Positions 11,068 to 61,906 of a stretch of DNA of 64,000 bases are shown piece after piece (within the stretch, counting starts at the first letter, position 1; every line of letters begins with the position of its first letter). This DNA comes from Thermodesulfobacteriota bacterium (GTDB lineage Bacteria > Desulfobacterota > BSN033 > UBA1163), in contig JAOAHX010000014.1 in assembly GCA_026415035.1 (NCBI GenBank), positions 11 to 64,010 of the forward strand, given 5' to 3'. The notes under the pieces were generated by a model, which saw nothing but the letters and a program-made list of their open reading frames with translations, was not told the origin of the DNA and did no database searches. A program made the translations under genes and the position numbers.

Positions 11068-11187
11068 CGATCCTCTTGTCGTTCAACGCCGCTGGACTTG
11101 TCCACCGGATGGACCACGACGGCCCGTCCCAACGGTTAAACTAAAAATAGTCTAACATACAGGGATCAAAAGGGAAAGAAAAATTTC

Positions 11188-11216
11188 TTGACATTGGTGG
11201 GCGTGTTTGTTATAAA
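11188..11216 (+). promoter_or_regulatory. Sigma70-like promoter TTGACA-17-TATAAA upstream of acyl-CoA dehydrogenase
   Basis: TTGACA 11188-11193, 17-nt spacer, TATAAA 11211-11216; true start codon ATG 11250 with RBS AGAGGGAGG. Confidence 0.6.
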
Positions 11217-11249
11217 ATGCACAATCTTAAAAAAGAGGGAGGTCTTTTT

Positions 11250-12395
11250 ATGGATTTTTCATTCACGGAAGAGCAGATCGCGATGAGGGATATGGCCAAG
11301 AATTTTGCAGAGAAGAAGATCGCTCCCACCATGGAAGAGGATGAGAAGGAGCATCGATTTCGAAGGGAGATCGTCAAAGAGATGGCCAGCCTCGGGTTCT
11401 TCGGCTGCATCGCGCCGGAGAAATATGGCGGAAACGAGACGGGGTATATCGCGGCCTCGATCATGGCCGAAGAGATCGCCAGGGTCTCACCCTCCTGGGG
11501 CCTTCCCTTCAATCTCCAGATGAATTCTATCCAGTCGGTCCTGCTCCAATTCGGGACCGAATCGCAGCGAGAACAGTACATCCCTAAATTGATCAATGCC
11601 GATCTGCTCGGCTGTTTCGCCATCACGGAGCCCAATTCCGGTTCGGATGTGGCCTCGATGAAAACGGCTGCTGAAGAGAAAGAGGATGGGTTCATCCTCA
11701 ACGGTAGCAAGATGTGGATCTCGGGTGTACCGGTGGCCGATCTCGGGATCGTCTATGCCTATACCGATCGATCCCTCAAACATCGGGGGATGTCCGCCTT
11801 TTTGGTCGATATGCACCTGCCTGGAGTGACCCAGAAGGCGATCGAGACGAAATTGGGGCTTCACTGCGCCCCCACCGGCGAGATCTATTTCGACAACGTC
11901 AAGCTCCCGAAGGAGAGCCTGGTGGGTCAAAAAGGGGATGGGTTCAAGATCTGCATGTACATGCTCGACAATACGAGGCTCTCCTGCGCTTCCAGGGCCG
12001 TCGGCGTGGCCAGGGCCTGTAAGGAACATGCGATCCGTTACGCCAACGAGAGGGAGCAGTTCGGCCAGCCCATCGCCAATTTCCAGATGATTCAAGAGCA
12101 GATCGCAGAGATGGTGGTCGAGGAGGAGGCGGCGAGGCTGCTGGTCTACCGGGCGGCCTGGAACCGTGATCGGGGGCAGCGCAATACGGTGGAGATCTCC
12201 TGCGCCAAACTCTTTGCATCCGAGGTGGCGGTCCGAGCGGCCAACACCGCCGTCAAAATCTTCGGTTCCTACGGTTTTTCGAGCGAATATCCGGTGGAAC
12301 GTTTTTATAGGGATGCGAAATCCTTCCAGATCGTCGAGGGAACCTCGAACATCCACAAGATGATCATCGCAAGAAATGCCCTGGGCCTGAAGTAG
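11250..12395 (+). CDS. Acyl-CoA dehydrogenase (short-chain/glutaryl-/alicyclic-CoA type)
   Basis: MDFSFTEEQ start typical of ACADs, FAD/substrate motifs (GSKMWISG, catalytic-base region FQIVEGTSNI); the ORF-track start at 11217 lies inside the promoter, so I reject it. Confidence 0.9.
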   Translation: MDFSFTEEQIAMRDMAKNFAEKKIAPTMEEDEKEHRFRREIVKEMASLGFFGCIAPEKYGGNETGYIAASIMAEEIARVSPSWGLPFNLQMNSIQSVLLQFGTESQREQYIPKLINADLLGCFAITEPNSGSDVASMKTAAEEKEDGFILNGSKMWISGVPVADLGIVYAYTDRSLKHRGMSAFLVDMHLPGVTQKAIETKLGLHCAPTGEIYFDNVKLPKESLVGQKGDGFKICMYMLDNTRLSCASRAVGVARACKEHAIRYANEREQFGQPIANFQMIQEQIAEMVVEEEAARLLVYRAAWNRDRGQRNTVEISCAKLFASEVAVRAANTAVKIFGSYGFSSEYPVERFYRDAKSFQIVEGTSNIHKMIIARNALGLK

Positions 12396-12520
12396 GGACG
12401 AAACGGCCCACCCTTCGGGATGTCCATGCTTTCCCGGCCAGAGCTTTGAAGGGCTGGAGAGGGCCGCGTCACGAATGCTCGGGCAAGCATCCAAAATCCA
12501 ACTGTTTCGAAGAGGAGGTT

Positions 12521-12742
12521 ATGCCTATGGGAACACCTGTGACGGTACCAATGGTAGGGAAGATCGTCTCCATCTCCGTGAAGGTCGGGGATCAGGTGAA
12601 AGAGGACGACCAGGTGGCGGTCCTTGAAGCGATGAAGATGGAGATGCCCATCGTGGCCCCGGTGAGTGGGACGATCCAGGAGATCAAGGTCGCACCGGGC
12701 CAGGAGGTCGAAGCTGAAGCGGTCATCGCCATCATCGGATGA
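12521..12742 (+). CDS. Small biotin carboxyl carrier protein (biotinyl domain only)
   Basis: 73 aa; EAMKM biotin-attachment motif; RBS AGGAGG 6 nt upstream of ATG 12521. Confidence 0.75.
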   Translation: MPMGTPVTVPMVGKIVSISVKVGDQVKEDDQVAVLEAMKMEMPIVAPVSGTIQEIKVAPGQEVEAEAVIAIIG

Positions 12743-12767
12743 CCCGGAGGGGGCGGGAGTCGGAGCG

Positions 12768-13223
12768 GTGGAGATCGATTTTTTATCGAAGGTCACCATA
12801 CGGCCCATGAACCCGGGAGACATCGGGGCGATTGTGGCGATCGACGAGAAGGTCATCGGAAAGTCGAGGCCGGATTACTGGAAGAAGATGGTCCCCGAAA
12901 ATCCACCGCATCCCATGCTCTCTCTGGTGGCGGAATTTGAAGGAAAGGTCATCGGGTTCGTTCTCGGAGAGGTGAGCGGGTGGGAATTCGGGGTTCCCGA
13001 TACGGTGGGATGGCTCACTATCATCGGCGTCGATCCCGACTTCCAACACAGGGGGGTGGCGAGAAAGTTGAGCCAGGAGTTCATCAAGAATTTGAAGGCG
13101 ATGAATGTCCGGGTCGTCTATACCTTGGTCAATTGGAATGATTGGGACCTCCTCAAATTCTACAAGGAGATGGGGTTCACCCGTGGGGGGGATATGATCA
13201 ACTTAGAATTGAGGCTCGATTAG
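12768..13223 (+). CDS. GNAT-family N-acetyltransferase
   Basis: GNAT core (VIGFVLGEV...HQHRGVARKL...KEMGF); start uncertain (GTG 12768 after GGAGGGGGCGGGAG, or ATG 12807). Confidence 0.6.
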   Translation: MEIDFLSKVTIRPMNPGDIGAIVAIDEKVIGKSRPDYWKKMVPENPPHPMLSLVAEFEGKVIGFVLGEVSGWEFGVPDTVGWLTIIGVDPDFQHRGVARKLSQEFIKNLKAMNVRVVYTLVNWNDWDLLKFYKEMGFTRGGDMINLELRLD

Positions 13224-13247
13224 AGCCCGGTCGAAGGAGAACGGGAG

Positions 13248-14003
13248 ATGGGAAGACTTGAAGGGAAAGCGGCGGTGGTGACGGGCGGAGGGAGGGGGAT
13301 CGGCAGGGCCGTCTGCCTCGCCTTCGCCAAAGAAGGGGCGGACGTGGTCGTCAACTATGCCTCGCAGGAGAAACCGGCCCAGGAGGTCGTCGCGCTGATC
13401 GAGCAGATGGGGCGGAAAGGGGTTGCGGTGAAAGGAAATGTGGCCGTCAAGGCCGATGTGGAGAAGATCATCCATACCTGCATCGATCACTTCGGGAAGA
13501 TCGATATCCTGGTGAACAATGCGGGGGTGTCCAGGCCCGGCATGCTCCACAAGATGACCGAGGAACAGTGGGACGAGGTGATCGACATCCAGCTCAAAGG
13601 CCCCTTCCTCTGTACTCAGGTGGCGGCCAAATTCATGATGGAGAGGAAGTACGGAAGGATCATCAACGTCACCTCCTCGGCTGGGCTCTGGGGGACCAAA
13701 GGCCAGATCAACTACAGCGCCGCCAAAGGAGGGGTTGTGGCCCTGACCAAATCGGCGGCCAGGGAGCTGGCGGGTTATGGGATCACTGTCAATGTGATCC
13801 AGCCCGGTTACGTCAATACGGAGATGTTCGAACGGGTGAAGTCGGATCCCAAGCTTTTGGAGATCTATACCGGCCGGATCCTGCTCGGTCGTTTTGCAGA
13901 TCCGGAGGAGGTGGCCCCGGCCTTCGTCTTTCTGGCCTCAGACGAGGCCAGTTATGTGACGGGTCAGCTCTTCTGCATCGACGGCGGCCTGGGGATGACC
14001 TGA
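13248..14003 (+). CDS. Short-chain dehydrogenase/reductase (FabG/BadH-like 3-hydroxyacyl-CoA dehydrogenase)
   Basis: TGGGRGIGRA Rossmann motif, NNAG, YSAAK catalytic tetrad, 251 aa. Confidence 0.85.
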   Translation: MGRLEGKAAVVTGGGRGIGRAVCLAFAKEGADVVVNYASQEKPAQEVVALIEQMGRKGVAVKGNVAVKADVEKIIHTCIDHFGKIDILVNNAGVSRPGMLHKMTEEQWDEVIDIQLKGPFLCTQVAAKFMMERKYGRIINVTSSAGLWGTKGQINYSAAKGGVVALTKSAARELAGYGITVNVIQPGYVNTEMFERVKSDPKLLEIYTGRILLGRFADPEEVAPAFVFLASDEASYVTGQLFCIDGGLGMT

Positions 14004-14063
14004 GGGTGAAACGAGACGGGGATTAAAATTTCGGAAGTCATTATCTCAAAGGGGGTGACGCGC

Positions 14064-15173
14064 ATGTCAGTACCGGACAGGATTGAGACGTGGCAGATGG
14101 TTCAACCGACTTCGAAGAACAAAGAGACGGGTGAGGTGATCCCAGGAAGACTGGAGAAGGTCTCCCTTCCCGTACCTCCTCTGGCCGCCGACGAGGTCCT
14201 GGTGAAGGTGGCAGGCTGCGGGGTTTGCCATACCGACCTCGGCTATTTTTACGACGGCGTTCCGACGGTCCAGAAGCCTCCCCTGACGCTCGGCCATGAG
14301 ATCAGCGGGACGGTGGTGGCGGGCGACGAGAAATGGATCGGCAAAGAGGTGATCGTCCCGGCGGTGATGCCCTGCCGGAAATGCCTGCTCTGCAAGACCG
14401 GCAGAGGGAACCGTTGTTTGGTCCAGAAGATGCCCGGAAACAGCCTCGGGATATACGGGGGTTTTGCGAGCCACATCCCGGTCCCCTCGATCGACCTCTG
14501 CGAGGTCCGGAATCGAGGGAACATCCCGTTGGAGCATTTGGCCGTGGTGGCGGATGCCGCCACCACACCCTACCAGGCCGCCAAACGGGCCGACCTCCAG
14601 CCCGGCGACCAGGTCATCATCATCGGGGTGACGGGAGGCGTCGGGGTCTACATGGCCCAGACCGCGAAGGCCCTGGGCGCGAAGACGGTGATCGGGATTG
14701 CGCGAAATCCTGCCAAACTCCAGCGGGCCCTGAAGTACGGGGCGGACTTCGTCATCAGCTCGCAGGACAAGCAGATCAAGGATATTCGGAACGAGTTTCG
14801 AGAGATCTGCAAGAAGAACCATCTGGAGGCGGGGTTCGGCTGGAAGATCTTCGAGGTGAGCGGTACGAAGGCGGGCCAGGACCTGGCCTTGGAGCTTCTC
14901 TCCTTCACCGGGAAGCTGATCGTGGTCGGCTTCGGGATGGCGAAGAATGAGTACATGATCTCCAGGTTGATGGCCTTCGATGCCGAGATCATCGGGACCT
15001 GGGGATGCCTCCCCGAATATTACCCCATCGTGCTGGACATGGTCCTTTCGAAGAAGATCGACATCGAGCCCTTCGTGGAGACGAGGCCGATGAGCCAGAT
15101 CGCCGCGGTCTTCGAGGAGGTTCACAAGGCCGGCTCACCGGAGCGAAGGATCGTTTTGACCCCCGATTTTTAA
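14064..15173 (+). CDS. Zinc-dependent medium-chain alcohol dehydrogenase family protein
   Basis: GCGVCHTDL...GHEISG zinc-ligand motifs, GVTGGVG NAD fold; ATG 14064 after AAGGGGGTG (ORF-track GTG 14055 also possible). Confidence 0.8.
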   Translation: MSVPDRIETWQMVQPTSKNKETGEVIPGRLEKVSLPVPPLAADEVLVKVAGCGVCHTDLGYFYDGVPTVQKPPLTLGHEISGTVVAGDEKWIGKEVIVPAVMPCRKCLLCKTGRGNRCLVQKMPGNSLGIYGGFASHIPVPSIDLCEVRNRGNIPLEHLAVVADAATTPYQAAKRADLQPGDQVIIIGVTGGVGVYMAQTAKALGAKTVIGIARNPAKLQRALKYGADFVISSQDKQIKDIRNEFREICKKNHLEAGFGWKIFEVSGTKAGQDLALELLSFTGKLIVVGFGMAKNEYMISRLMAFDAEIIGTWGCLPEYYPIVLDMVLSKKIDIEPFVETRPMSQIAAVFEEVHKAGSPERRIVLTPDF

Positions 15174-15232
15174 GGGAGGAGAAGCTCAAGGTCGGTTCAA
15201 TTTTTTGAATCCACAAGAAAGGAGAGGAGACG

Positions 15233-16204
15233 ATGAACGGAAAGAGCAAGTACGAGAAGATTTTCAGGGGAAGGGATCCCAAGGAGTTCGGATTCGAAGA
15301 GATCATCTATGAGAAAAAGGATTGGACGGCCAAGATCACCCTCAACCGACCCCAACGTTACAACGCCTATACCGGGACCGAGCTGGCGGAGATCTGCGAA
15401 GCCCTCCACGACATCACCGTCGATGACAAGGTGGCCGTGGGAATCATCACCGGCGCCGGCGACAAGGCCTTCTGCACGGGCGGCGACGCAGGGACCTATT
15501 CGACCATCTATCCGGAGCGGCCCCACGAATTCTACATGTGGTGGGAATTCTACGAAAGGATGCTCTACATGATCCGGACCTGCGGAAAACCGATCATCGC
15601 CCGGATCAACGGCGTGGTGGCCGGAGGGGGAAATGAGATCAACCTGGCCTGCGACATCTCGATCGCCGCGGAGCATGCCCGCTTCATCCAGCCCGGGACC
15701 CGGACCGGGAGCGTCTCCGCCGGAGGCGCCACCCAGTGGTTGCCCTTGGTGATCGGCGACAAGAGGACCCGCTGGATGGTGATGGTGGGCGACGAGATCA
15801 ACGCCCAGACGGCCCTTCAGTGGGGCTTGGTCAACGAGGTCGTCCCCTACGAGAAGCTGGACGAGGCAGTCGACAAGGTCGTCGAGAAGTTGGTGGATAA
15901 GTTCCCGGATTGCATGAGATACACCAAAGTTCAGTGCAACTTCTGGACGGACCTGGCCTGGACGACCTTCCAGCATGCGAGGGACTGGCTCTCCGTCCAC
16001 TATGCGACCGCCGAGCCGATCGAAGGCTTCAGGGCCTTCCTCGAAAAGCGAAAGGTCGACTACCGCGCCATGAGGCAGAAGGACATCGCGGGCAAGAGCC
16101 GGAGCTATATCTTCGGACCTCCGATGAAGTCCTGCGCCAAATGCGGAACGAAGTATCTGCCCGATGAGTTCAAATTCTGTGGGGTCTGCGGGGCAGCGAT
16201 TTAG
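15233..16204 (+). CDS. MenB/BadI-family crotonase (2-ketocyclohexanecarboxyl-CoA hydrolase-like) fused to C-terminal zinc ribbon
   Basis: Strong similarity pattern to the BadI/MenB family (NRPxxxNA, GAGDKAFCTGGD, KPIIARINGVVAGGGN, FLEKRKVDYRAM); extra 40-aa tail CAKCG-x11-CGVCG. Confidence 0.8.
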   Translation: MNGKSKYEKIFRGRDPKEFGFEEIIYEKKDWTAKITLNRPQRYNAYTGTELAEICEALHDITVDDKVAVGIITGAGDKAFCTGGDAGTYSTIYPERPHEFYMWWEFYERMLYMIRTCGKPIIARINGVVAGGGNEINLACDISIAAEHARFIQPGTRTGSVSAGGATQWLPLVIGDKRTRWMVMVGDEINAQTALQWGLVNEVVPYEKLDEAVDKVVEKLVDKFPDCMRYTKVQCNFWTDLAWTTFQHARDWLSVHYATAEPIEGFRAFLEKRKVDYRAMRQKDIAGKSRSYIFGPPMKSCAKCGTKYLPDEFKFCGVCGAAI

Positions 16205-16213
16205 GATCGGACG

Positions 16214-16576
16214 ATGGCCTTGAGAGAGTCGAAATACCGAAGCGACCTCGGATTCTACAAGGAATTCGATCAGGATCGGGTCGTCCTGCCCGTTAAAGAG
16301 GATGGGGGTCTCTACTATGTGGAGATCCCCTCCCACCTTCGAAATCGTTTGGAACTCGTCGTGGGAAGTCGGTTGAAAGGGTGGCTGGAGAAGGTCCAGC
16401 CCAGAAAAGGCAAGGCCCAGACCCTGAAGAGGAAGATCGATTGGGAGATCGTGGGATACTGGCACGAGCTCCACATCCCCCAAGACCTGGTCAGGAAGTT
16501 GAAGCTGAAGGACGGGGATCAACTGACCTTGAAGTTCGAGCGGGTGGTCAATTACGGAAACGAGATCGAGATTTGA
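16214..16576 (+). CDS. Tandem AbrB/MazE-like (swapped-hairpin) domain protein
   Basis: Two repeats resembling AbrB-N/SpoVT (IPSHLRNRLELVVGSRLKGWLE and IPQDLVRKLKLKDGDQLTLKFE); 120 aa; 10 nt after upstream gene. Confidence 0.45.
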   Translation: MALRESKYRSDLGFYKEFDQDRVVLPVKEDGGLYYVEIPSHLRNRLELVVGSRLKGWLEKVQPRKGKAQTLKRKIDWEIVGYWHELHIPQDLVRKLKLKDGDQLTLKFERVVNYGNEIEI

Positions 16577-16612
16577 GGGTCCTTTTTGAACCTTAGAAAA
16601 AGGGTCTTTCGA

Positions 16613-16653
16613 TAGGGAGGTGATATGGCCTCCCTATTTTCTTTCTTCTTTCC
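16613..16653 (+). terminator. Rho-independent terminator
   Basis: TAGGGAGG-tgatatgg-CCTCCCTA hairpin followed by TTTTCTTTCTTCTTTCC. Confidence 0.7.
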
Positions 16654-16683
16654 TTCCCAATCTCATCTCATGAGGTGATCGCC

Positions 16684-17451
16684 ATGGCATTTAAATGGAT
16701 TCAGACGGAGTTGAAGGAAGGGGTGGCCTATCTCACCCTGAATCGCCCTCCCCTCAACTGGCTCAATCTCGAAATGATGGAGGAGATCAATGCCTATCTC
16801 GAAGGGCTAAAAGAGGAGAAGAGCCTCAAGCTCCTCGTTGTCCAGGCGGCGGGAAAGGCCTTTTCGGTGGGGGTCGAGGTGGCCGAGCACTTAGGGGACC
16901 TTGGCCCGAGGATGATCGAGACCTTTCATCGCATGTTCCGCCTGATGGACGAGTTAAAGGTCCCGACCCTTGCGATCGTCCATGGCTCCGCCCTTGGCGG
17001 AGGATGCGAACTCGCGGTCTATTGCGATATGGTCCTGGCCACGGAGAAGGCCAGGTTCGGACAGCCTGAGATTCAGGTGGGGGTCTTCCCCCCGATTGCC
17101 GCTTTGGTCTTTCCGAGGATGATCGGCCGGAAAAAGGCCATGGAGCTGATCCTATCGGGCGAGACGATCAGCGCGCAGGAAGCCCTGGCGATCGGCCTGG
17201 TCAACCGGGTCGTTTCGGAAGCCTCGCTGGCCGAGGAGGTCGATAAGTTCATCGGGAAGTTCAAGAGTCTGAGCGGAATCGTCCTGAAGCTGACCAAAGA
17301 GGCGACCCTTTCGGGGTTGTGCGACGAGCCGGCAAAGGGGCTGAAGACCATCGAGCAGATCTATCTCGATCGGCTGATGAAGACCGAAGATGCCACCGAA
17401 GGGCTCCAGGCCTTCTTGGAGAAAAGGAAACCCCTTTGGAAGGACCGCTGA
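16684..17451 (+). CDS. Enoyl-CoA hydratase/isomerase (crotonase) family protein
   Basis: Crotonase fold motifs (LTLNRPPLN, AAGKAFSVG, GSALGGGCELAVYCD, oxyanion hole), 256 aa from MAFKWIQ. Confidence 0.85.
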   Translation: MAFKWIQTELKEGVAYLTLNRPPLNWLNLEMMEEINAYLEGLKEEKSLKLLVVQAAGKAFSVGVEVAEHLGDLGPRMIETFHRMFRLMDELKVPTLAIVHGSALGGGCELAVYCDMVLATEKARFGQPEIQVGVFPPIAALVFPRMIGRKKAMELILSGETISAQEALAIGLVNRVVSEASLAEEVDKFIGKFKSLSGIVLKLTKEATLSGLCDEPAKGLKTIEQIYLDRLMKTEDATEGLQAFLEKRKPLWKDR

Positions 17452-18766: not shown

Positions 18767-20212
18767 ATGAGGCAAGATCTCAAAAGGTCCCTGAAAGCGG
18801 TGGACACCACCGACTGGAAGCCCGTGGAGGTGGAATTTGGCAGGCAGACGATCGAGGTCCGCCTTCCTCCCCATAGTGCGGTTCTTTCGATGAAGGACGT
18901 CCCCGTCCTCTCCAATCCGAGGGAGGCCATCGAGGAGGCCTTCGCCCATCCCATCGGCAGTCCTCCTCTCGAGGAGATCATCCGGAAAAAGGGAAAGGCC
19001 CCGAAGGAGATGAGCGTTGCTATTGCCGTCTCCGACATCACCCGGCCGGTCCCCTACAAAGGGGATTCCGGGATTCTCGGACCCCTTTTGAAACGACTGG
19101 AGGCCTCGGGCATCCTTAAGGAGCACATCAAAATCGTCGTGGCCACGGGGATGCACCGGCCGAGCACCCATGAGGAGAAGATCGAGATGTACGGGTCCGA
19201 GGTGGTTGACCAATACAGGATCCTCGACCACGATTGTGAGAACAGGGACCTTCTCGAAAGCATCGGGACGACCCGAAGGGGAACCCATGTCTTCGTGAAT
19301 AAAGATTTCTATTTCTCCGACCTCAAGATCGTGACGGGTCTTGTGGAGAGCCACTTCTTTACTGGAATCTCTGGGGGCCGAAAATCGATCTGCCCCGGGC
19401 TGGTCGATGTGAAGACCATCCAGAAGTTTCACGGTCCCCTCTATCTGGAGGATCCCCGGACCACCAACCTCGTCCTCGAGGGGAACCCCTGTCACGAAGA
19501 GGCGCTGGAGGTGGCCCAGACCGTCGGGGTCGATTTCGCGATCAACGTCAATCTCAATAAAGAGTTGCAACTCGTGAGGGTCTTTGCAGGCGAGATGGAG
19601 GAATCAAACCTCAAGGCCTATGAGTTGATCAAGAGCTATGCCGAGATCCCGATCGAGGAGGAGTTCGATATCGTCCTCACCCATAGCGGCTATGTGGGGA
19701 GGGACCATTATCAAACGGCCAAGGCGGGCGTAGGGGCGCTGCCCGCGGTCAAGCCTGGGGGGACCATCATCATTGCGGCCAACAATAGGGATCTCATCGA
19801 GCCCATCGGCTCGCCCGAATATCGAAGCTTGATCCACCTTTTGAAATTACAGGGCCCGGAGGGCTATCTCGCCCTCCTGAGGTCTCCGACCTGGAGATTT
19901 ACGAAAGACCAGTGGGAGCCCGAGGTGTGGGGTAAGGTGTTGAGAAAGGTGGGCGAAGAGGGGTTGATCTATTGCTCCCTCGAAATCGAACGAAAGAACT
20001 ATTGCCTTCTGCCCGGGATCTGCGGCCTCGACTTCTTGGAGGATGGGGAGGTCGATCCCTCCCTCCAGAAGGCTCGCCAGATGGTTCAGAATGCGGTGAT
20101 CTATGCCGTGGGACGCTACCGGGAAAGGGGCATTGAACCGACCGTTGCCTTTATCCGGGAGGGACCCTATGCGGTTCCAATCCTCCGAAAAGGTCCTCCC
20201 CTCACGACTTGA
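18767..20212 (+). CDS. LarA-family (DUF2088) nickel-pincer-cofactor-dependent racemase/epimerase homologue
   Basis: 481 aa; layout and conserved His/Lys-containing segments ([28 protein letters not shown]) typical of lactate racemase LarA family. Confidence 0.7.
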
Positions 20213-22975: not shown

Positions 22976-24949
22976 TCAATCCGTTTTCGCTCTTTCGCCG
23001 GCCAGCTGGATCACCACGCTCGGATCGGTGAGGGTCGAGGTGTCGCCCAGCTCCTCGAGCCTTCCCTCGGCGATCTTTCTGAGGATCCGGCGCATGATCT
23101 TCCCGCTTCGGGTCTTGGGAAGGGCATCGGCGAACTGGAGCTTGTCAGGGGTGGCGATCGGCCCGATCACCTTTCTCACGTGCCCTAACAACTCCTTTCT
23201 CAATTCTTCGGTTCCCTTGACCCCGCTTTTTAACGTGACAAAGGCATAGATCCCTTGGCCCTTTACCTCGTGGGGGATCCCGATGACGGCAGCCTCGGCC
23301 ACGGCCGGATGAGAGACAAGGGCGCTTTCGACTTCGGCGGTGCCGATGCGGTGACCGGAGACGTTGATCACGTCGTCGATCCGGCCCAGCAGCCAGAAGT
23401 AGCCGTCCTTATCCTTCTTCGCGCCGTCTCCGGTGAAGTAGTGGCCCGGAAAGACGGAGAAGTAGGTCTCTTTGAACCGCTTCCGCTCCGGGTCGTTCCA
23501 GAATCCCCGCAGCATCCCAGGCCAGGGCCGGGCGATGACGAGAGAGCCCCCCTCGTCCACGTCGCACTCGGTCCCGTCCTCCCTCAGGACCTTGGGAAGA
23601 ACCCCCGGAAAGGGGAAGGTTGCGGAGCCCGGCTTTAAAGGCGTGATCGGCAAGGGGCTGATAAGAAAACCGCCCGTTTCGGTTTGCCACCAGGTATCCA
23701 TGATCGGGCATCTTTCTTGTCCCACGTACTTATAATACCATCGCCAGGCCTCGGGATTGATCGGTTCGCCCACCGAACCGAGGATCCTCAGGCTCGAGAT
23801 GCCTCTCCGTTTCACCCACTCCTCTCCCTCCTTCATCAGGGCGCGGATCGCCGTGGGGGCGGTGTAGAAGGCCGTCACCCGGTACCTTTCGACGATCTCC
23901 CAGAATCGGTCCGGCTTGGGGTAGGTGGGTACCCCCTCGAACATGAGGGTGGTGGCGCCCAGGGCCAACGGCCCATAGACGACATAACTGTGCCCCGTCA
24001 CCCATCCGATGTCGGCCGTGCAGAAGAAGACGTCCTCCTCCTTCAGGTCGAAGACCCATTTCAAGGTTTGATAGACAAAGAGGAGGTAGCCTGCGGTGGT
24101 GTGAATCACCCCTTTGGGTTTTCCCGTGCTTCCGCTCGTATATAGGATGAAGAGGATGTCTTCGGAGTCCATCATGGCCGGCTCGCAGTGGAGCCGGATG
24201 TCCTCCCTGGCCATCTCCTCGTGCCACCAGACATCCCTTCGCTTGTCGAATTCCACGTCGATCCCCAGCCGTTTGACGACGATCACCTTTTCCACTTCGG
24301 GACATTCCCTCAGGGCCTCGTTGGCGTTGAGTTTGTTCTGGACGATCCGGCCGCCCCGGTAGTATCCATCTGCCGTGATGAGGATCTTCGATCCGCAATC
24401 CTTGATGCGATCGCGAAGGGCCTCGGAGCTGAAACCTCCGAAGACGACGCTGTGGATCGCCCCGATGCGGGCGCAGGCGAGCATGGCGATGGGGAGCTCC
24501 GGGATCATGGGGAGGTAGATGGAGACCCGGTCTCCTTTCTTGACCCCGAATTTCTTCAAGACGTTGGCAAACTTATTGACATGATAATGGAGCTGCTGGT
24601 AGGTGAAGATTCGATTCTCCTCGAGGGGTTCGCCCTGCCAGATCAGGGCCACCTTGTTGTTGCGCCAGGTGTTGAGATGGCGGTCCAGACAGTTGTAACT
24701 GGCGTTTAACTTCCCGTTGATGAACCATTTGATCTCGGGTCGGTCGAAATCGTACTCCAGGACCTTATCCCATCTTTTATACCAGCTGAGCTGCTCGGCC
24801 AGCTCTCCCCAGAACCCCTCCGGATCCTCGATAGATCGATGATAGATCTTCTGGTATTCTTCGAGGCTCCGGATGGTCGCTTTCAACTTGACCGCATCCG
24901 AGGGGTGGATGACCTGGTCTTCCATCGAGGGGCTTTCGTAGAGCTTCAT
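22976..24949 (-). CDS. acs: Acetyl-CoA synthetase (AMP-forming)
   Basis: 658 aa from MKLYES; ANL motifs ([17 protein letters not shown]-like [13 protein letters not shown], catalytic Lys in [11 protein letters not shown]). Confidence 0.95.
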
Positions 24950-25132
24950 CGTCTCCTCTCCTTCCTTAGGGTTAAGAATTTGGTCGGGTAGCGTTATTCT
25001 AACTTTTTTGGGGAGACCCATGTCAAGGGAGTGGACCGATCTTAGGGTCTAATCCCATCCCCTTCGGCGGGGACTTTGATTTTTGAGGGGGGCGTGATTA
25101 TTTTAAAAGGTTGTGAAAAGGCGGTAGGGGTT

Positions 25133-45946: not shown

Positions 45947-46717
45947 TCATCCCGAGGCCCTTTCGACCTGGGAGAGCCGTTTCACCTCTTCGACGATGGC
46001 AGGGATGATCTTTCCCGCCGGCCCCATGATCAGGTAATCCGAAATCCGGCCGGTCAGGGGCGTGGGCTCCATGTTGACCTCGATCACGGTGGCCCCTGAC
46101 TCCTTTGCGATCATCGGGATGGAGGCCGCTGGGTAGACGACGGCCGAAGTCCCGATGACGAGAAGGAGCTGGCAGGACCTCGACTCCCTGAAGGAGGCGG
46201 ACTGGGCCTTGGGCGGGATCGGTTCGCCGAAGAAGACGACATCGGGCTTCAGGAGGGAGGCGCAGCGCGGGCATCGGGCGGGAAGGTCTTCGACCCTGAG
46301 AAGGGTGCCGTCCGTGGTGGTGGCGCACTTGAGGCAGGTGAGGGTCCGGTGGCTTCCATGGAATTCGATCACCTGGGTGTTGCCGGCGGCCTGGTGGAGC
46401 CCGTCGATGTTCTGGGTGATGACGGTGGAGAGAAGGCCCATCCGTTCCAGCTCGGCCAATCCGAGATGGGCCGGGTTGGGTTTGGCCTGCATGACGAGGG
46501 CGAACATCTCCTTCAGCATCTGCCAGACCTTTTCCGGATGGGCATAGAAGGCTTCGATGTGGGCGTACTCTTCCGGGTCGAATCTCTCCCAGAGCCCCCC
46601 GGCGCTCCGAAAATCGGGGATGCCGCTCTCGACGGAGATGCCCGCTCCGGTGAAGGCGATCGTCTTTCGGGATTTGAGAAGGTCCCGGGCGGCCCTCTGG
46701 ATCAACGGTTCGTTCAT
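45947..46717 (-). CDS. cobB: NAD-dependent protein deacylase, Sir2 family
   Basis: GAGISVESGIPDFRS, QNIDGLH, Zn-binding CLKC...CPRC, HG motif. Confidence 0.9.
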   Translation of the reverse strand: MNEPLIQRAARDLLKSRKTIAFTGAGISVESGIPDFRSAGGLWERFDPEEYAHIEAFYAHPEKVWQMLKEMFALVMQAKPNPAHLGLAELERMGLLSTVITQNIDGLHQAAGNTQVIEFHGSHRTLTCLKCATTTDGTLLRVEDLPARCPRCASLLKPDVVFFGEPIPPKAQSASFRESRSCQLLLVIGTSAVVYPAASIPMIAKESGATVIEVNMEPTPLTGRISDYLIMGPAGKIIPAIVEEVKRLSQVERASG

Positions 46718-46831: not shown

Positions 46832-46892
46832 AGGGTGTTTGAAAAGGGATCCCCCAGAGACCGTCCATCGGCAGGGGATTCGGAAAGGAGGG

Positions 46893-47381
46893 ATGGGAAT
46901 GATCAAGAAGATCTCGGTCTATCCGGAGAAGTGCACGGCCTGTCGTCTGTGCGAGTTGGGGTGTTCGTTCAAGAAGACCGGTGAGTTCAATCCGGTGGCC
47001 TCGAGGGTGAGGGTCTCCATCTTTGGGGAGGACGCCTTCTATACGCCGATCCTCTGCACCCAGTGCGATGAGGCCTGGTGCCTCAAGGCCTGTCCGAGCG
47101 GGGCCATCTCAAGGGATCTCGGGCAGAGGGTGGTGAAGGTGGATCCCCAGCGGTGTGTGGGATGCCGGATGTGCACGATGGCCTGCCCGTTCGGAACGAT
47201 CACCTACGACCCGCAACAGGGAAAGGCGATCAAATGTGACGAGTGCGATGGCCAGCCCGAATGTGTCCTGTTCTGCCCGACGGGTGCCTTGAAGTATGAG
47301 GAAGAATCCATGCCCACCCGGCTCAAACGGGCGATGACCGCTCGGAAGCTCGAGTCTTCCTCGAAGGAGGTGCAGCCATGA
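46893..47381 (+). CDS. 4Fe-4S ferredoxin-type electron-transfer subunit of aldehyde oxidoreductase (AorA-like)
   Basis: Four CxxCxxCxxxCP-type cluster motifs; RBS AAGGAGGG; start ATG 46893 or 46899; stop overlaps AOR start (ATGA). Confidence 0.8.
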
Positions 47382-49180
47382 AGGGATGGGTTGGAAAGAT
47401 GTTGAGGGTGAACCTCACCCAAGGAGATTGGAGGGTGGAGGAGCTGGATAGGCAACTCGCCCTGAAGTTCATCGGTGGAAGGGGCCTCGGTTCGAAGATC
47501 CTCTATGACGAGATCGATCCGAGGATCGATCCCCTCAGCCCTCAAAACAAGCTGATCCTCGCCACCGGCCCCCTGACCGGGACGAGCGCCTCGGCAGCCG
47601 GCCGCTATATGGCCATCACGAAATCGCCTCTGACCGGGGCGATCGCCTGTTCCAATTCCGGGGGGCACTTCGGCGCCGAGCTCAAATTCGCCGGATTCGA
47701 TCTGATCATCGTCGAAGGAAAGGCGAAAGAACCGGTCTATCTCTTCGTCGAGGACGGAAAGGTGGAGATCCGCGAGGCGAAACACCTCTGGGGGAAGACG
47801 ACGCATGAGACGACCGACCAGATCCGGGCCGAGACCGATATGGATGCGAAGGTCGCCTGCATCGGCCCTGCCGGAGAGAAACTCGTCCGCTTCGCCTGCA
47901 TCATCAACGATAAACATCGGGCCGCAGGCCGCTCGGGCGTCGGGGCGGTGATGGGTTCGAAAAACCTGAAGGCGATCGCCGTCAAGGGAAGCGGAAGCGT
48001 CTGCATCGCCGACAAGGAGGGTTTCAGGAGGGCAACGCTCGACGGATTCCAGAAGGTGAAGGCCAATCCCGTCACCTCGACGGGTTTGCCCGCCTATGGG
48101 ACCGCGGTCCTGGTCAACGTGATCAACCAGCACGGCCTCTTTCCCACGAGGAACTTCCAGGAGGGGGTCTTCGAAGGCGCCGAGAAGATCAGCGGAGAGA
48201 CCCTTGCCGAACAGATGCTTATCCGGAATCAGGCCTGCTTCGCCTGCCCCATCGCCTGCGGCAGGGTGACGAGATCGAACCACCCCAAATTTGCCTATTC
48301 CGGCGAGGGCCCGGAGTATGAGTCGGACTGGGCCTTGGGGGCCTGTTGTGGCGTGGATAACCTCGATGCGATCGGAAAGGCCAACTACTATTGCGACATC
48401 CTGGGACTCGACCCGATCTCCGCGGGGGTGACGATCGCCTGTGCGATGGAGCTGTTCGAGAGAGGAATTTTGACCTCCAAGGAGGTTGGCCGCTCCCTCT
48501 ATTTCGGAGACGCGGAGGCCATGGTCGAGATGGTGAGGCAGACCGGTTACCGGGAGGGATTCGGCGATGCCTTGGCCGAGGGCTCCTATCGCCTGGCCGA
48601 GAGGTTCGGCCACCCCGAATTTTCGATGAGCGTGAAGAAACAGGAGTTTCCTGCCTATGATGGCCGGGGCGCCCAGGGCATGGGGCTCCAGTACGCCACC
48701 TCCAACCGGGGCGCCTGTCACGTGAGAGGCTACATGATCTCTCCTGAGATTTTAGGGGCTCCCCAGAAACTGGATCCCTTCGAGACGGAGGAGAAGGCGG
48801 GCTGGACCAAGGCCTTTCAGGATACGACTGCCGTGGTCGACTCCTCCGGGATCTGCCTCTTCAACACCTTTGCGATCGGCATCCCGGAGATCGCCGCCTA
48901 TCTGAAGGCGGCCACCGGGGTCGAGATGACCCAGGAGGAGCTGATGAAGGCCGGAGAGAGGGTCTGGAATCTGGAGCGGCTCTTCAATCTGAAGGCGGGG
49001 ATGACGGGGAGAGAGGATCGCCTGCCGGAGAGGATCGTCAAAGAACCCCTGCCCTCGGGCCCTGCCAAGGGTCAGGTGGTCCGGCTCGAAAAGATGTTGC
49101 CAGAATATTACGAGATCCGGGGATGGGACAAGGACGGGGTTCCCACTCCGGAGAAGCTGAAGGAACTCGGGCTGGAATGA
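47378..49180 (+). CDS. Tungsten-containing aldehyde:ferredoxin oxidoreductase family catalytic subunit (AorB-like)
   Basis: 600 aa, AOR N-terminal domain (MLRVNLTQG...FIGGRGLG) and tungstopterin domains ([11 protein letters not shown], GxGxCHVRG-like segments). Confidence 0.92.
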
Positions 49181-49189
49181 GGTGAGCTT

Positions 49190-49229
49190 CCCCCGGCCTC
49201 CGTTTGAAAGGGGGTCGGGGGATTTTTTT
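49190..49229 (+). terminator. Intrinsic terminator/attenuator between aorB-like and aorC-like genes
   Basis: CCCCCGGCC-13 nt loop-GGTCGGGGG stem followed by ATTTTTTTG. Confidence 0.6.
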
Positions 49230-49240
49230 GCGAGGAGGCG

Positions 49241-50512
49241 ATGGCGAGAAAGCGGAGACGAAGGATCGTCATCATCGGTAACAGCGCGGCGGGCCTTTCG
49301 GGCCTCGAGGCCCTGAGGAAGAGGGATCCCGATTGCAGGGTCGTCCTGATCGACGAAGAGCCCTATCCTGCCTATTCCAGGGTGATCACCCCCTACTTCG
49401 TCCTCGGCAGTCTGAAGGAGGAAAGTGGTCTCTTTCTGAGAGACAGGGCCTATTACCGGAGGCTCGGGGTGAAGACCCTTTTCGGCAGGAGGGTGGTCGG
49501 CCTGGATGTTCGAAACCGGGATGTCCTTCTCGACAACGGGAAGAAGGAGCCTTTCGACCTACTATTGATCGCCACCGGGAGCTCCCCGATCCGACCGAAG
49601 ATCCGGGGTGCCAAACCCGACGAGATCCACGTCTTGAGGAGCCTGGAGGATGCCAGGCGTTTGAAAGCCCTTAAGCCGACCATCCGACAGGGGCTCTTCT
49701 TGGGAGGAGGGCTCGTCTCGCTCCAATCCCTTCAGGCCCTCTTTCGAAGGGAGGGCCGCTACACGGTTGTCGTCAAGTCCGACCATCTCCTCTCCCAACA
49801 GCTCGATCCCGAAGGGGCCGAGATGATCGAGAAGCGGCTGAGGGGGATGGGAGTTCAGGTCTTGAAAGGAAGGGATGTGATTCAATTAAAACGGAGGAAA
49901 GGGTCTCTTCGTGCCGTCCTCGATACCGGCGAGGAGCTGGAGACCGACTTTCTCTTCGCAGGTAAGGGGGTCCGTCCCAATATCGACTTCCTCAGGGGGA
50001 CGGGCATCGAGACCAAAGGCGGGATCCTGGTGAACCGGCAGATGGAGACGAACATCGAGGGCATCTATGCCGCGGGGGATGTGGCGGTGGCCCCGGACTT
50101 CTTCTCTGGCGAAGAGGTCCTTTATGGGTTATGGTCTTCTGCGGTGGAGCAGGGAGCGGTGGCGGGAACGAATATGGCCGGCCAGGGGGTCGATTACGAA
50201 GGCAACCTGAAGATGAACGTGACGCGGATCTTCGCCGTACCCGTGGCTTCGATCGGCGAGGTCCGCTCCACCCGGGTGGCCGAGAGCCTGGTCCGAAAAG
50301 ACGAGAGGAGGGGGATCTACCGGAAGTTCTGTTTCGATGGGCAAGGGAGGCTTATCGGAGCGATCCTGATCGAGGAGGTGGAAGACTTAGGAGTGATCCA
50401 AGGCCTCATCAGGAAGAGAAAGGACGGGGCGATCCTCAAAACCCGCTCCCTCTGGAGATCGCCGGTCAACTACGGATTGGTCTTTAAAGGCCTTTTGCAG
50501 GGCAGGCCCTGA
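49241..50512 (+). CDS. FAD-dependent pyridine nucleotide-disulfide oxidoreductase (AorC-like NAD(P)-linked subunit)
   Basis: RIVIIGNSAAGLSGLEAL FAD Rossmann, second GxGxxG-like NAD fold (LFLGGGLVSL), AAGDVA motif. Confidence 0.8.
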   Translation: MARKRRRRIVIIGNSAAGLSGLEALRKRDPDCRVVLIDEEPYPAYSRVITPYFVLGSLKEESGLFLRDRAYYRRLGVKTLFGRRVVGLDVRNRDVLLDNGKKEPFDLLLIATGSSPIRPKIRGAKPDEIHVLRSLEDARRLKALKPTIRQGLFLGGGLVSLQSLQALFRREGRYTVVVKSDHLLSQQLDPEGAEMIEKRLRGMGVQVLKGRDVIQLKRRKGSLRAVLDTGEELETDFLFAGKGVRPNIDFLRGTGIETKGGILVNRQMETNIEGIYAAGDVAVAPDFFSGEEVLYGLWSSAVEQGAVAGTNMAGQGVDYEGNLKMNVTRIFAVPVASIGEVRSTRVAESLVRKDERRGIYRKFCFDGQGRLIGAILIEEVEDLGVIQGLIRKRKDGAILKTRSLWRSPVNYGLVFKGLLQGRP

Positions 50513-54314: not shown

Positions 54315-54728
54315 TCACACCTTGACGATTTCGAACGAGAGCTGGCCGTCCTCGTAGGTGACCGGTTTGACCGAGACCTCCATCCCTACCCGGATCTCCT
54401 CGGGCTTCAATGCCTTGGTCACCCTGGCAAAGAGTTTGAGACCGTCGCCGTAATCGACCACGCCCATCGTATAGGGAGGGTCGGCTTCAAAGCCAAAGGG
54501 GGCATAGTAGGCCGTGGTGAAGGTCTCGAGCCTACCTTTGGGTGGCATCTCGAACCAGTCCATCTGATTGGAGAAGCACTTGGCGCAGTCGGCCCTCGGT
54601 GGAAAGTACCTGGCCCCACACCCTTTGCAGATCGTCCCTTTGATCTTTCCTTCTGCGAGAAAATCGACAAATTTGGCGGTCTTGGTGGTCGCGGTGAAGC
54701 TCTTTCTCCCGAATTTTTCGAACCCCAT
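54315..54728 (-). CDS. DUF35 zinc-ribbon/OB-fold protein (thiolase partner)
   Basis: CKGCG-x10-CAKC rubredoxin-like ribbon followed by OB-fold; 3-nt gap after thiolase. Confidence 0.8.
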   Translation of the reverse strand: MGFEKFGRKSFTATTKTAKFVDFLAEGKIKGTICKGCGARYFPPRADCAKCFSNQMDWFEMPPKGRLETFTTAYYAPFGFEADPPYTMGVVDYGDGLKLFARVTKALKPEEIRVGMEVSVKPVTYEDGQLSFEIVKV

Positions 54729-54731
54729 AAC

Positions 54732-55913
54732 TTACCTCCCCAGGATGGTGACATTTCCGTAGAGCCCGACGCCCCCGATGTTGTGCACCACACCGATGTC
54801 GGGCTCGCCAGGAACCTGCATGGGGCCCGCTTCCCCCCGAAGCTGCAGCACGATGGTTCGGATCTGAGAGCCGCCGGTGGCCCCGATGGGATGTCCTTTT
54901 GAAAGGAGACCGCCGTCCACATTGACGGGGATCCTCCCCTCTTTGTAGGTGGCCTTTTCACGGATGAGCTGTTTGCCTTCTCCGATGGGTGCGAATCCTA
55001 AACCTTCGTAGGCCATGATCTCGGCAATGGTGAAACAGTCGTGAACCTCGGCCACCTTGACGTCCTTGGGAGTGATGCCTGCCATTTTATAAGCCTGGGC
55101 CGCTGCAGCATGGCCCACGCTCAGGCCTTGGGTAAAATCGGGACGGGCGGCCATGTTGACCGACTCCGAAGCCGTGCCGATGCCCAGGATCCAGACCGGT
55201 TTCTTGGAAAAGATTTTGGCTTTCTCGGCATTGGCGAGGATGATGCAGGAGCTTCCATCGGCATTGGCGCAGCAGTCGCCCACCCGGAGGGGCCAGGCCA
55301 CCGGGCCCGCCATTTTGGCCTCGGGATCGCCCGGTTTGAAATCCTCGGGCTTGACGGGCTTGCGGTAAACGGCCCGATCGTTGATCACACCATAGACCGA
55401 CGATTTGATCCTCACGTTCATCAGGTCCTCATGGGTCAGCCCGTGTTTGGCCATATAGGCCTGGGCATAGAGGGCATAATAGGCGGGCATCATCGTTCCG
55501 AAAGGCGCCTCCCACTGGATGTCCGCCCCCCGACCCATTCGCTCCTGGGATTCGGCCGACGAGATCTCGGACATCTTCTGGAATCCGAGGACGACGACCA
55601 CGTCGTGGAGTCCGGCCTTGATCATGCTATAAGCCACCTTGACCCCGGTGCTGCTTGAAGAGCAGACCGTTTCCACATAAAGGGTGGGTTGAGGGATGAG
55701 CCCAAGATATTCTGCAAGCACACCAGCCGGGGAGCGCTGCTTGTCGTATTCGGGAGCCGAGCAGAAGACCGAGGCATCCACGTCCTTCTGGGTAATGCCC
55801 GCATCGTTCATGGCTTCCCTGAAGGCCTCGAAGGCCAGCTCACGGATCGACCCTTCATACCCCCTCACAAACGAGGATTGACCCACACCGATGATGGCTA
55901 CTTCCTTTTTCAT
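54732..55913 (-). CDS. SCP-x-type thiolase (thiolase-fold condensing/cleaving enzyme)
   Basis: Thiolase fold with active Cys in VETVCSSSSTGV, C-terminal HNIGGVG; start MKKEVAII after upstream in-frame extension. Confidence 0.88.
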   Translation of the reverse strand: MKKEVAIIGVGQSSFVRGYEGSIRELAFEAFREAMNDAGITQKDVDASVFCSAPEYDKQRSPAGVLAEYLGLIPQPTLYVETVCSSSSTGVKVAYSMIKAGLHDVVVVLGFQKMSEISSAESQERMGRGADIQWEAPFGTMMPAYYALYAQAYMAKHGLTHEDLMNVRIKSSVYGVINDRAVYRKPVKPEDFKPGDPEAKMAGPVAWPLRVGDCCANADGSSCIILANAEKAKIFSKKPVWILGIGTASESVNMAARPDFTQGLSVGHAAAAQAYKMAGITPKDVKVAEVHDCFTIAEIMAYEGLGFAPIGEGKQLIREKATYKEGRIPVNVDGGLLSKGHPIGATGGSQIRTIVLQLRGEAGPMQVPGEPDIGVVHNIGGVGLYGNVTILGR

Positions 55914-56116
55914 CGAAGGCCTCCCTTCCGTGATCAATTGGTGTTCTAACATAATCGAGAGATCCGTTCCTTGTCAAGGGTGGAAATCGAACGAAAGAAT
56001 AAAAGGATCGGTCATTTGACATTGGCGGAACAGGCCTTTTAAGATGGATAGAAAGACCGAAGAGGGACGTTCGGGGCAGTTCGGGTCCCGATCCTTAATA
56101 ATTGAAAGGAAGGACG

Positions 56117-61030: not shown

Positions 61031-61906
61031 TTATTGCTTTAAATATTTATTGAACCAGGCGATACAACGCCTCCAGGCATCCTTCGCAGCCTCGGGTCTG
61101 TAACTGGGACGATAATCGGCATAGAAGGCATGGGGAGCCCCAGGGTAGATGATGAATTCCGCGATCTTTCCGGCCGCCTTCAAGCTTGCCTCCATCTCCT
61201 TTACATCGGCGACCGGAATGCCGAGGTCAGCCTCACCGTATAGGCCCAGAACGGGAGCCTGAATTTTATGGACGATATCGAGAGGTCCGAAGGTTCTTAC
61301 CCCTGGCGTTTTAGCCGGTCGGAGCTGGCCATACCAGGCCACCCCCGCCCTCACCTCTTGATTATGGGCGAGGAAGAGGAAGGTGTATAGCCCTCCCCGG
61401 CAGAATCCCGTGACCCCGATTCGATCTCCCTTTGCAAAGGGGTGCTTTTTTGCATAGAAGAAGAGGCGATCGAGATCAGCCATTATCCTTTCGTCTGGGA
61501 TGGCATCGACGATTTTTCGAACGGCCGCGATATCTTGGAGATGTAAAACGCCTCCTTCGCGCGCATAGGGTTCAAAGGTGATTCCCAAGAAACCCTCTTT
61601 GGCAAATCGGCGCGTCACGTCTTTGATATGTTCATGCATTCCAAAAATTTCGGGGATCACCAGCACCACCGGATAGTTTCCAGCAGCGGAGGGCCTTGCC
61701 TCATAGATAGGGATCTGGAAATCCCCTGCCTGAACAGTGGTCTCCTGAACCGCGAGCCCCTCTGTGGAGGTGGTGATGATCTCTCCGGCCACTGGATTTG
61801 CGGCGATTGCAAATCCGGCAAGGCCGATTCCCGTTGCCGTCATCCGGGCAAGGAACTGTCTTCGTGACATTCCTTCGTAAGCATTTGCTAACCAGTCTTC
61901 CACCAT
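61031..61906 (-). CDS. Dienelactone hydrolase family protein with twin-arginine signal peptide
   Basis: Tat motif SRRQFLARMTATGIGLAGFAIAA; alpha/beta-hydrolase nucleophile elbow GFCRGG, DLH-family layout; start likely ATG 61870. Confidence 0.85.
   Translation of the reverse strand: MVEDWLANAYEGMSRRQFLARMTATGIGLAGFAIAANPVAGEIITTSTEGLAVQETTVQAGDFQIPIYEARPSAAGNYPVVLVIPEIFGMHEHIKDVTRRFAKEGFLGITFEPYAREGGVLHLQDIAAVRKIVDAIPDERIMADLDRLFFYAKKHPFAKGDRIGVTGFCRGGLYTFLFLAHNQEVRAGVAWYGQLRPAKTPGVRTFGPLDIVHKIQAPVLGLYGEADLGIPVADVKEMEASLKAAGKIAEFIIYPGAPHAFYADYRPSYRPEAAKDAWRRCIAWFNKYLKQ

Follow-up and report, generated by a model that had tools for sequence, protein, structure and literature searches.

The closest described counterparts of the genes considered here belong to the lower benzoyl-CoA pathway of the Thauera/Geobacter/Syntrophus type (Dch-Had-Oah), whose operons include the bcr cluster of T. 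aromatica and the bamA, bamQ, bamR, bamK, bamM and bamN genes of G. metallireducens. BamA (Oah), the ring hydrolase of this pathway, has been regarded as a marker gene of general use for the anaerobic cleavage of aromatic rings (PMC3794298). A second known route, the Rhodopseudomonas-type degradation of cyclohexanecarboxylate, proceeds through AliB, BadK, BadH and BadI to pimelyl-CoA. The operon analyzed here occupies positions 11188-17451 of a 64,000-nucleotide stretch from a Thermodesulfobacteriota bacterium (assembly GCA_026415035.1, contig JAOAHX010000014.1; the whole stretch is referred to as the window), and a preliminary description of this DNA had assigned it to the Rhodopseudomonas-type route. 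By comparing the operon with protein family models and with related metagenomic operons, it was found that the Dch-Had-Oah pathway of a Syntrophorhabdus-related host is the probable assignment, with bamA replaced by a cassette of two genes, one for a crotonase bearing a zinc ribbon (ECHzn) and the other for a protein of 120 amino acids (aa). Judged from its sequence, the pathway is already known, and what is new is a putative variant of its ring hydrolase.

Eight co-directional open reading frames with short gaps and high third-position GC are present on the + strand of this region, and the gene families, gene order and terminator proposed in the preliminary description were borne out by Pfam and NCBIfam searches and by the hairpin itself. 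The genes encode an acyl-CoA dehydrogenase (ACAD; 381 aa, 11250-12395, three ACAD Pfam domains, Acd-like), a stand-alone biotinyl carrier (71 aa, 12527-12742, EAMKM motif, Biotin_lipoyl at 8.6e-21), a GNAT acetyltransferase (151 aa, 12768-13223, Acetyltransf_1), a short-chain dehydrogenase/reductase (SDR; 13248-14003, adh_short with a FabG-like profile), a zinc-dependent alcohol dehydrogenase (Zn-ADH; 14064-15173), ECHzn (323 aa, 15233-16204, ECH_1 plus Zn_Ribbon_1, with a C-terminal CxxC-x11-CxxC zinc ribbon), the 120-aa protein (16214-16576) and, behind an intrinsic-terminator-like hairpin (16611-16648 on the + strand, with a stem of 11 bp and a T-rich tail behind it), a last, Dch-like crotonase (16684-17451, ECH_1). 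Since the same order was found again in at least six independent contigs, the arrangement is not a product of chance. The Zn-ADH passes the Had model TIGR03201 (485.4 bits against a cutoff of 338.65), and a protein search returned a 100% identical protein annotated as Had in an NCBI MAG and hundreds of relatives at 77-91% identity. Compared with the Dch-Had-Oah operons mentioned above, the operon shares Had, a Dch-like crotonase, a ring hydrolase, an SDR, a GNAT (cf. bamK), an ACAD (cf. bamM) and an obligately anaerobic aromatic-degrading host. On the other hand, its hydrolase is of the ECHzn type, reductase genes are not adjacent, its ACAD is Acd-like whereas that of Geobacter is decarboxylating, and a biotin carrier is embedded among its genes.

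The replacement of bamA is evident from related metagenomic operons, which are collinear with the window at 67-79% nucleotide identity. Canonical bamA loci were gathered by scanning metagenomes with the published primer SP9, the sequence of which was confirmed in PMC3794298. The ACAD (64-88% aa identity), the carrier, the SDR and Had (80-90%) of the window all have counterparts in four operons (L165, L206, L207 and L208); the last crotonase is present in L165, L206 and L207, and L208 does not show one. In all four, the slot of ECHzn and the 120-aa gene is filled by one protein of 378-382 aa, which scored 549, 548, 466 and 457 bits with the Oah model TIGR03200 and so reached or nearly reached its cutoff of 464.45. 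The nucleotide alignment (blastn) with L207 is collinear over window positions 11179-12394, 12526-15173 and 16684-17439, and the sole break sets window positions 15174-16683 against a 1.29-kb bamA segment, with L165 and L206 behaving alike. Moreover, the BamA-type operon of L208 adjoins YceG/RuvX, the same locus as in the window. Because the ECHzn operon lies at the same chromosomal locus as the BamA-type operon of a relative, the event looks like a replacement rather than a duplication: bamA has been replaced in situ by the cassette of ECHzn and the 120-aa gene in this lineage. The ECHzn version was also found in a more distant organism (L001-L004). Downstream of the BamA-type operon, the L208 contig carries (13709-20405) genes for a ferredoxin, two BcrAD/BadFG-type ATPases, a second GNAT and FlpD/HdrA-like Fe-S flavoproteins, which may form an electron-supply or activase module.

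The position of ECHzn within the crotonases cannot be read from hidden Markov model (HMM) scores alone, because the BadI, MenB and Oah models give nearly equal scores that all lie under their cutoffs. The top NCBIfam match is the BadI model TIGR03210 (185 against 467.6), and the MenB models TIGR01929 and NF005637 gave 174.5 against 342.7 and 180.6 against 380. Phylogenetic placement, the check that the preliminary description had proposed for its BadI-type assignment, was carried out with 16 ECHzn, 13 BamA, 2 PGAP-annotated BadI, 2 MenB and 4 ordinary crotonase sequences; a tblastn search against plasmids provided BadI and MenB references and found no Oah. With 293 alignment columns and with 256 core columns, respectively, bootstrap values of 0.955 and 0.895 were obtained for a monophyletic ECHzn, 0.945 and 1.0 for a monophyletic BamA, 0.975 and 0.995 for ECHzn plus BamA, and 0.985 in both cases for BadI plus MenB. 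These trees place ECHzn as the sister clade of BamA and not of BadI or MenB. An artefact caused by the C-terminal extension common to ECHzn and BamA was considered and rejected, as the grouping persisted at 0.995 when only the core columns were used.

Several derived characters are common to ECHzn and BamA, including an (R/Q)YN(A/S)Y motif, a C-terminal helix and a four-residue insertion in the form Y-x3-Y-x2-RP-x-E. The GGG(N/Q)E motif of both groups keeps a hydratase-type Glu (Glu135 in ECHzn), which is replaced by Val in BadI and MenB; in the crotonase superfamily, enoyl-CoA hydratases have their first catalytic Glu at this position. Conversely, the Asp of the BadI/MenB motif GS(V/F)D has been lost in ECHzn and BamA. 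The retained Glu would fit an enzyme that adds water to a double bond before ring cleavage, as Oah does. ECHzn resembles BamA/Oah in the crotonase fold and in its operon slot between Had and Dch, although the two are only 28-34% identical and ECHzn is joined in this subclade by the 120-aa partner gene. With BadI and MenB, two families that both catalyze C-C bond chemistry on cyclic beta-oxoacyl-CoA, it shares the crotonase subgroup and an AFCTGGD motif; unlike ECHzn, they form a separate clade, carry the Asp and have no zinc ribbon, and the BadI references occur in SDR-BadI-crotonase clusters without Had. The four ribbon cysteines of ECHzn (CxxC-x11-12-CxxC) are all near-invariant. An AlphaFold model of ECHzn made from a 17-sequence alignment reached a predicted local distance difference test (pLDDT) score of 66.9 with a poor C-terminal third, and was excluded from the fold search and from placement of the ribbon.

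These results bear directly on the route through AliB-, BadK-, BadH- and BadI-like enzymes to pimelyl-CoA, which now appears very improbable. It is true that all enzyme classes needed for this route are present, that the ACAD lacks the dicarboxylate-binding Arg, and that the raw identity of ECHzn to BadI (38%), its top NCBIfam match, exceeds that to BamA. However, all four equivalog models failed by wide margins; with the AliB models TIGR03207 and NF043006 the ACAD scored 242 against 575 and 282 against 650, and with the BadH model TIGR03206 the SDR scored 204.7 against 431, below its scores with generic FabG-like models. Halfway along the operon stands a true Had, an enzyme that is not used by that route. 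In addition, ECHzn falls with BamA in the trees and has the hydratase Glu that BadI is missing, orthologous operons carry a canonical Oah, and the ACAD is nearer to GDH_Des (378 bits) than to the cyclohexanecarboxyl-CoA dehydrogenase structure 7xp7 (195 bits). The preliminary description was thus partly supported, being correct on the lifestyle and the gene families and having chosen the wrong one of two known routes. This operon lends itself to such a misreading; in Ferroglobus placidus, a BadI-like annotation reportedly led to a Rhodopseudomonas-type proposal, and enzymology later favored the Thauera type. A further reading, which takes the MenB-like protein for a genuine 1,4-dihydroxy-2-naphthoyl-CoA synthase of menaquinone synthesis and its neighbors for an ordinary fatty-acid beta-oxidation operon, draws on the name 'naphthoate synthase' of some close relatives and on MenB structures as the best matches in PDB, and is effectively refuted by the failure of TIGR01929 and NF005637, the absence of the MenB catalytic Asp, and the placement of the MenB references in a separate clade with BadI. 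The preliminary description had itself raised a grouping with true MenB alongside menaquinone genes; ECHzn does not group in this way, and no men genes were found in the window.

With the Dch-Had-Oah assignment in place, the question is whether ECHzn does the work of BamA, and a number of observations weigh against that view or against parts of the pathway. ECHzn fails the Oah/BamA model TIGR03200 (170.7 against 464.45), it is without an insertion special to BamA and therefore shorter by about 55 residues, and the zinc ribbon occurs in ECHzn only; for these reasons, the equivalence of the two enzymes is inferred from operon position and phylogeny. The trees are of the neighbor-joining type only, with 200 bootstraps each. 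The last crotonase fails the Dch model TIGR03189 (166 against 292.5). Genes for benzoyl-CoA reductase, GcdA and GcdB were not found in the window, and the inspection covered only these 64 kb of the genome, so that a canonical bamA may be located elsewhere in it. Since some ECHzn relatives adjoin CoA-transferases or thiolases and have no reductase, the ECHzn family may act on more than one cyclic substrate. With regard to the ACAD, its score with the model of non-decarboxylating glutaryl-CoA dehydrogenase, NF045552, falls just under the cutoff (465.9 against 470), Arg87 is replaced by Gly in 7/7 operon orthologues (window, L006, L001, L165, L206, L207 and L208), and Arg87-bearing Acd-like proteins exist in related bamA contigs, of which that of L193 passes NF045552 with 538 bits. 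Because the ACAD lies below the Acd cutoff and has no Arg87 while such Arg-bearing proteins exist, it is doubtful, as far as sequence can indicate, that this enzyme performs the glutaryl-CoA step.

Some of these features would also suit another explanation, namely that the operon is a paralogous, specialized ring-opening module for a related alicyclic CoA ester (a substituted or differently oxidized ring, or intermediates of cyclohexanecarboxylate formation), with the main benzoyl-CoA flux passing through a canonical bamA operon elsewhere. The large deletion and added zinc ribbon that distinguish ECHzn from BamA, the systematic alteration of the ACAD pocket (helix 84-101, R87G and G252R) and the relatives of ECHzn located beside CoA-transferases or thiolases are in line with it, as is the presence in G. 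metallireducens of two Oah paralogues that are both induced by benzoate (PMC1924859). Nevertheless, the altered ACAD is also found in BamA-type operons and is therefore not linked to ECHzn, the locus is the same as that of a relative's BamA-type operon and looks like a replacement, and Had still shares 80-90% identity with its counterparts in BamA-type operons. This explanation is regarded as unlikely, yet it is to be taken more seriously than the two discussed before it.

If the operon belongs to the Dch-Had-Oah pathway, the catalytic activities predicted from family and position, together with the putative substrates of the ACAD and the SDR, could be arranged as follows. The Dch-like last crotonase, which is a positional orthologue of the crotonase following canonical BamA in L206 and L207 (72-75% identity), would hydrate cyclohexa-1,5-diene-1-carbonyl-CoA, and Had would oxidize the 6-hydroxy product. 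ECHzn would then stand in for the ring hydrolase, normally the task of BamA/Oah. The resulting 3-hydroxypimelyl-CoA would be oxidized by the SDR, a conserved partner of Had and of BamA or ECHzn in many loci, whose assignment as 3-hydroxypimelyl-CoA dehydrogenase derives from its place in the pathway. Acetyl-CoA would be released by a thiolase encoded elsewhere, possibly by a DUF35/thiolase pair at 54.3-56.0 kb of the window, and the Acd-like dehydrogenase with the biotin carrier would probably handle the conversion of glutaryl-CoA through glutaconyl-CoA to crotonyl-CoA. The pair in question comprises a DUF35 protein (137 aa) with a CxxC..CxxC motif and a thiolase (406 aa) with Pfam thiolase domains, located on the - strand at 54315-55952. 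The thiolase and the DUF35 protein are 66% and 46% identical, respectively, to the pair in an operon of L193 with the order SDR-thiolase-DUF35-BamA-Dch-Had, which makes them a candidate 3-oxopimelyl-CoA thiolase acting together with the operon 37 kb away.

The assignments of the ACAD and the carrier are the weakest part of this reading of the operon. The best PDB match of the ACAD is 3MPI, the Acd of Desulfococcus multivorans, with 378 bits and 47.8% identity, and the ACAD keeps, as Acd does, the Val before the catalytic Glu (IVEG). Arg87 of this Acd aligns with Arg94 of human glutaryl-CoA dehydrogenase, the carboxylate-binding residue of that enzyme. In the same seven operon ACADs that have lost Arg87, Gly252 (3MPI numbering; residue 249 in the window) has become Arg and helix 84-101 is remodeled, and the Arg87-bearing proteins of L193 and L111 have Gly at 252. 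The Arg at 252 could be a relocated carboxylate clamp or, judging from the same residues, could reflect a different substrate. The Acd of D. multivorans works with glutaconyl-CoA decarboxylase. The ACAD of the window adjoins a biotinyl protein, and GcdA and GcdB are not part of the window. The biotin carrier did not reach the cutoffs of specific NCBIfam models; in the relatives, it is always adjacent to an Acd-like ACAD and follows it, and it could plausibly act as GcdC. The Acd-like gene of G. bemidjiensis adjoins gcdA (PMC2996986). On the bamA contig L111 (3571-9963), genes for a biotin carrier, the Arg87-bearing Acd-like ACAD, a 577-aa carboxyltransferase with a weak mmdA-like match and an AMP-ligase are found in a row, which is possibly a complete Acd/Gcd arrangement.

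The distribution of ECHzn extends far beyond this lineage. A protein search with ECHzn returned thousands of matches, the best 120 of which are 52-94% identical, 253-349 aa long and spread over many bacterial and archaeal phyla, and in a scan of species-representative genomes at least 595 of 600 matched stretches were confirmed as ECHzn relatives. Among 81 genome loci in which the genes within about 8 kb of ECHzn were counted, a Dch-like crotonase was present in 42, an SDR likewise in 42, a Zn-ADH in 37 and a GNAT in 10, and HGD-D-family proteins with BcrAD-type ATPases occurred in 33 (~40%). The Asgard archaeon L014 has a full four-gene reductase-like set composed of two HGD-D proteins and two ATPases, and one of its subunits scored 701 bits with the bzdO model (cutoff 449). 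On the basis of these neighbor counts, the four-gene set and the bzdO score, the ECHzn family regularly accompanies modules of bzd-type benzoyl-CoA reductase, and such modules have been read as Bcr-Dch-Had-Oah in published studies of metagenome-assembled genomes (MAGs; PMC8163825, PMC5736913). In the Asgard MAGs L014, L021, L028, L033, L040 and L042 and in many Chloroflexota and Acidobacteriota loci, a conserved block unites ECHzn with a Dch-like crotonase, a Zn-ADH and four genes for bzd-type benzoyl-CoA reductase, often preceded by genes for a thiolase, an AMP-ligase and MaoC. For the Zn-ADHs of these blocks the Had model is the best match, with scores (226-241) under the cutoff of 339.

A broader proposal can be drawn from this distribution, to which we would give about an even chance: the anaerobic benzoyl-CoA pathway may have in ECHzn a second, unrecognized type of ring-opening hydrolase, which would be interchangeable with BamA, would perhaps act together with the 120-aa partner, and would be the form used next to reductases of the bzd type in Asgard archaea, Thermoplasmata, Chloroflexota, Acidobacteriota and others. 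The operon described here is a naturally occurring exchange, bamA having been traded for a zinc-ribbon sister enzyme in a Syntrophorhabdus-type operon that keeps its other genes. ECHzn evades the usual marker tests, as the Oah model failed and no site with up to three mismatches for either bamA primer was found in the ECHzn gene; the window contains two weak matches of the reverse primer, both outside that gene. Literature searches found no paper describing a zinc-ribbon Oah-like enzyme and no biochemical characterization of ECHzn. The ECHzn type has no curated model, and its database names are inconsistent, with relatives called 'enoyl-CoA hydratase-related' or 'naphthoate synthase'. If ECHzn and BamA do have the same function, surveys based on bamA PCR and HMMs systematically overlook a large share of the organisms that degrade aromatics anaerobically, and estimates drawn from such markers understate anaerobic aromatic degradation, while many pathway calls in MAGs would gain a testable enzymatic basis.

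The 120-aa protein is a fixed partner of ECHzn in this subclade, its gene following that of ECHzn in L001, L006, L007, L008 and L214, and only 22 homologues were found among 5.8 billion proteins. It may serve as a regulator or as a subunit. Its AlphaFold2 model (pLDDT 83.6) consists of two beta-beta-alpha-beta repeats, and the best Foldseek matches were 2glw and 2d9r (TM 0.52/0.65, E 0.017), which weakly suggests a likeness to single-chain cradle-loop or AbrB-like barrels. The label 'AbrB-like' given to it previously thus stands at the level of the predicted fold (a 2glw-like barrel) and fails at the level of the Pfam family, as PF04014 (AbrB/SpoVT/MazE) gave 22.8 over 20 residues, under the gathering threshold of 24.7. 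On the Dehalococcoidia contig L214, the gene (1402-1851) follows ECHzn with no pathway gene downstream, and only about 400 bp of the contig lie upstream.

Several observations concern the GNAT, whose positional counterparts in the BamA-type operons L207 and L208 share 66% and 50% identity with it, respectively, and which is not present in the BamA-type operons L165 and L206. A specific tie between the GNAT and ECHzn was considered and rejected in view of the 66%-identical GNAT in L207. Precedents exist in bamK (Gmet_2077) of the G. metallireducens bam cluster, which is induced 22-fold on benzoate (PMC1924859), and in a GNAT beside bamQ in ORM2a (PMC13101534). The window further contains, on the - strand, an acetyl-CoA synthetase-type AMP ligase (22976-25021) and a Sir2-family deacylase (45947-46717), and a Hist_deacetyl-family gene lies a few kb from ECHzn in L001 and L005, beside the GNAT in L001. 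There are hints in this of an acyl-lysine control of the pathway. Such control is known for BadA in R. palustris.

The host of the operon is likely a Syntrophorhabdus-related syntroph with an anaerobic aromatic lifestyle. Among the matches listed, the closest genome locus, L006, belongs to an uncultured Syntrophorhabdus MAG and matches the window in gene order and upstream flank, which agrees with the anaerobic aromatic or alicyclic acyl-CoA pathway and lifestyle suggested in the preliminary description. As whole-region blastn gave a nucleotide identity of 83% for the operon and 76% for the flank, L006 represents a related species; the same two values rule out a recent horizontal transfer into diverged flanks, which an identity of '99%' for L006 would have implied. 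Proteins 100% identical to Had and the 120-aa protein of the window were found in a MAG named 'Desulfobacterota bacterium'.

The operon starts with a sigma-70-like promoter on the + strand (11188-11216), read directly from the sequence, in which TTGACA (11188-11193) and TATAAA (11211-11216) are separated by a 17-nucleotide spacer and agree with the consensus at 11 of 12 positions. An automatic promoter scan, whose rule demands T as the final base of the -10 hexamer, reported none for the operon; this negative was set aside because TTGACA-17-TATAAA is visible by eye. The consensus promoter described earlier at this start is thus present, and the stretch is conserved in the DNA alignments with L165, L206 and L207, which begin at 11179-11183. 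Start codons of the ACAD (11250), carrier (12527), GNAT (12768), Had (14064) and last crotonase (16684) were refined by using ribosome-binding sites and the lengths of relatives. An ACAD start at the ATG at 11217 was rejected, as it falls in the -10 box, the ribosome-binding site AAGAGGGAGG precedes 11250 and the relatives have 381 aa. Housekeeping genes flank the operon on either side, with IleRS, LspA, Lgt, Def, Fmt, RsmB, Rpe, MltG and RuvX upstream and LpxR, a LarA-like gene and IlvD downstream. The LarA-like gene, located beyond LpxR at 18767-20212, encodes a protein of 481 aa with a LarA N-terminal domain (lactate-racemase-like, nickel-pincer family).

Elsewhere in the window, the aldehyde:ferredoxin oxidoreductase genes and the DUF35/thiolase pair mentioned in the preliminary description were both found. 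The former (46839-50512) encode a 4Fe-4S protein, an aldehyde:ferredoxin oxidoreductase (AFOR_N/AFOR_C) and a Pyr_redox_2 flavoprotein in an AorABC-like layout, and are followed by CBS-domain and nitroreductase genes. Near the end of the window (61031-62696), genes for a dienelactone-hydrolase-family protein (- strand) and an FlK-like acyl-CoA thioesterase (+ strand) were identified.

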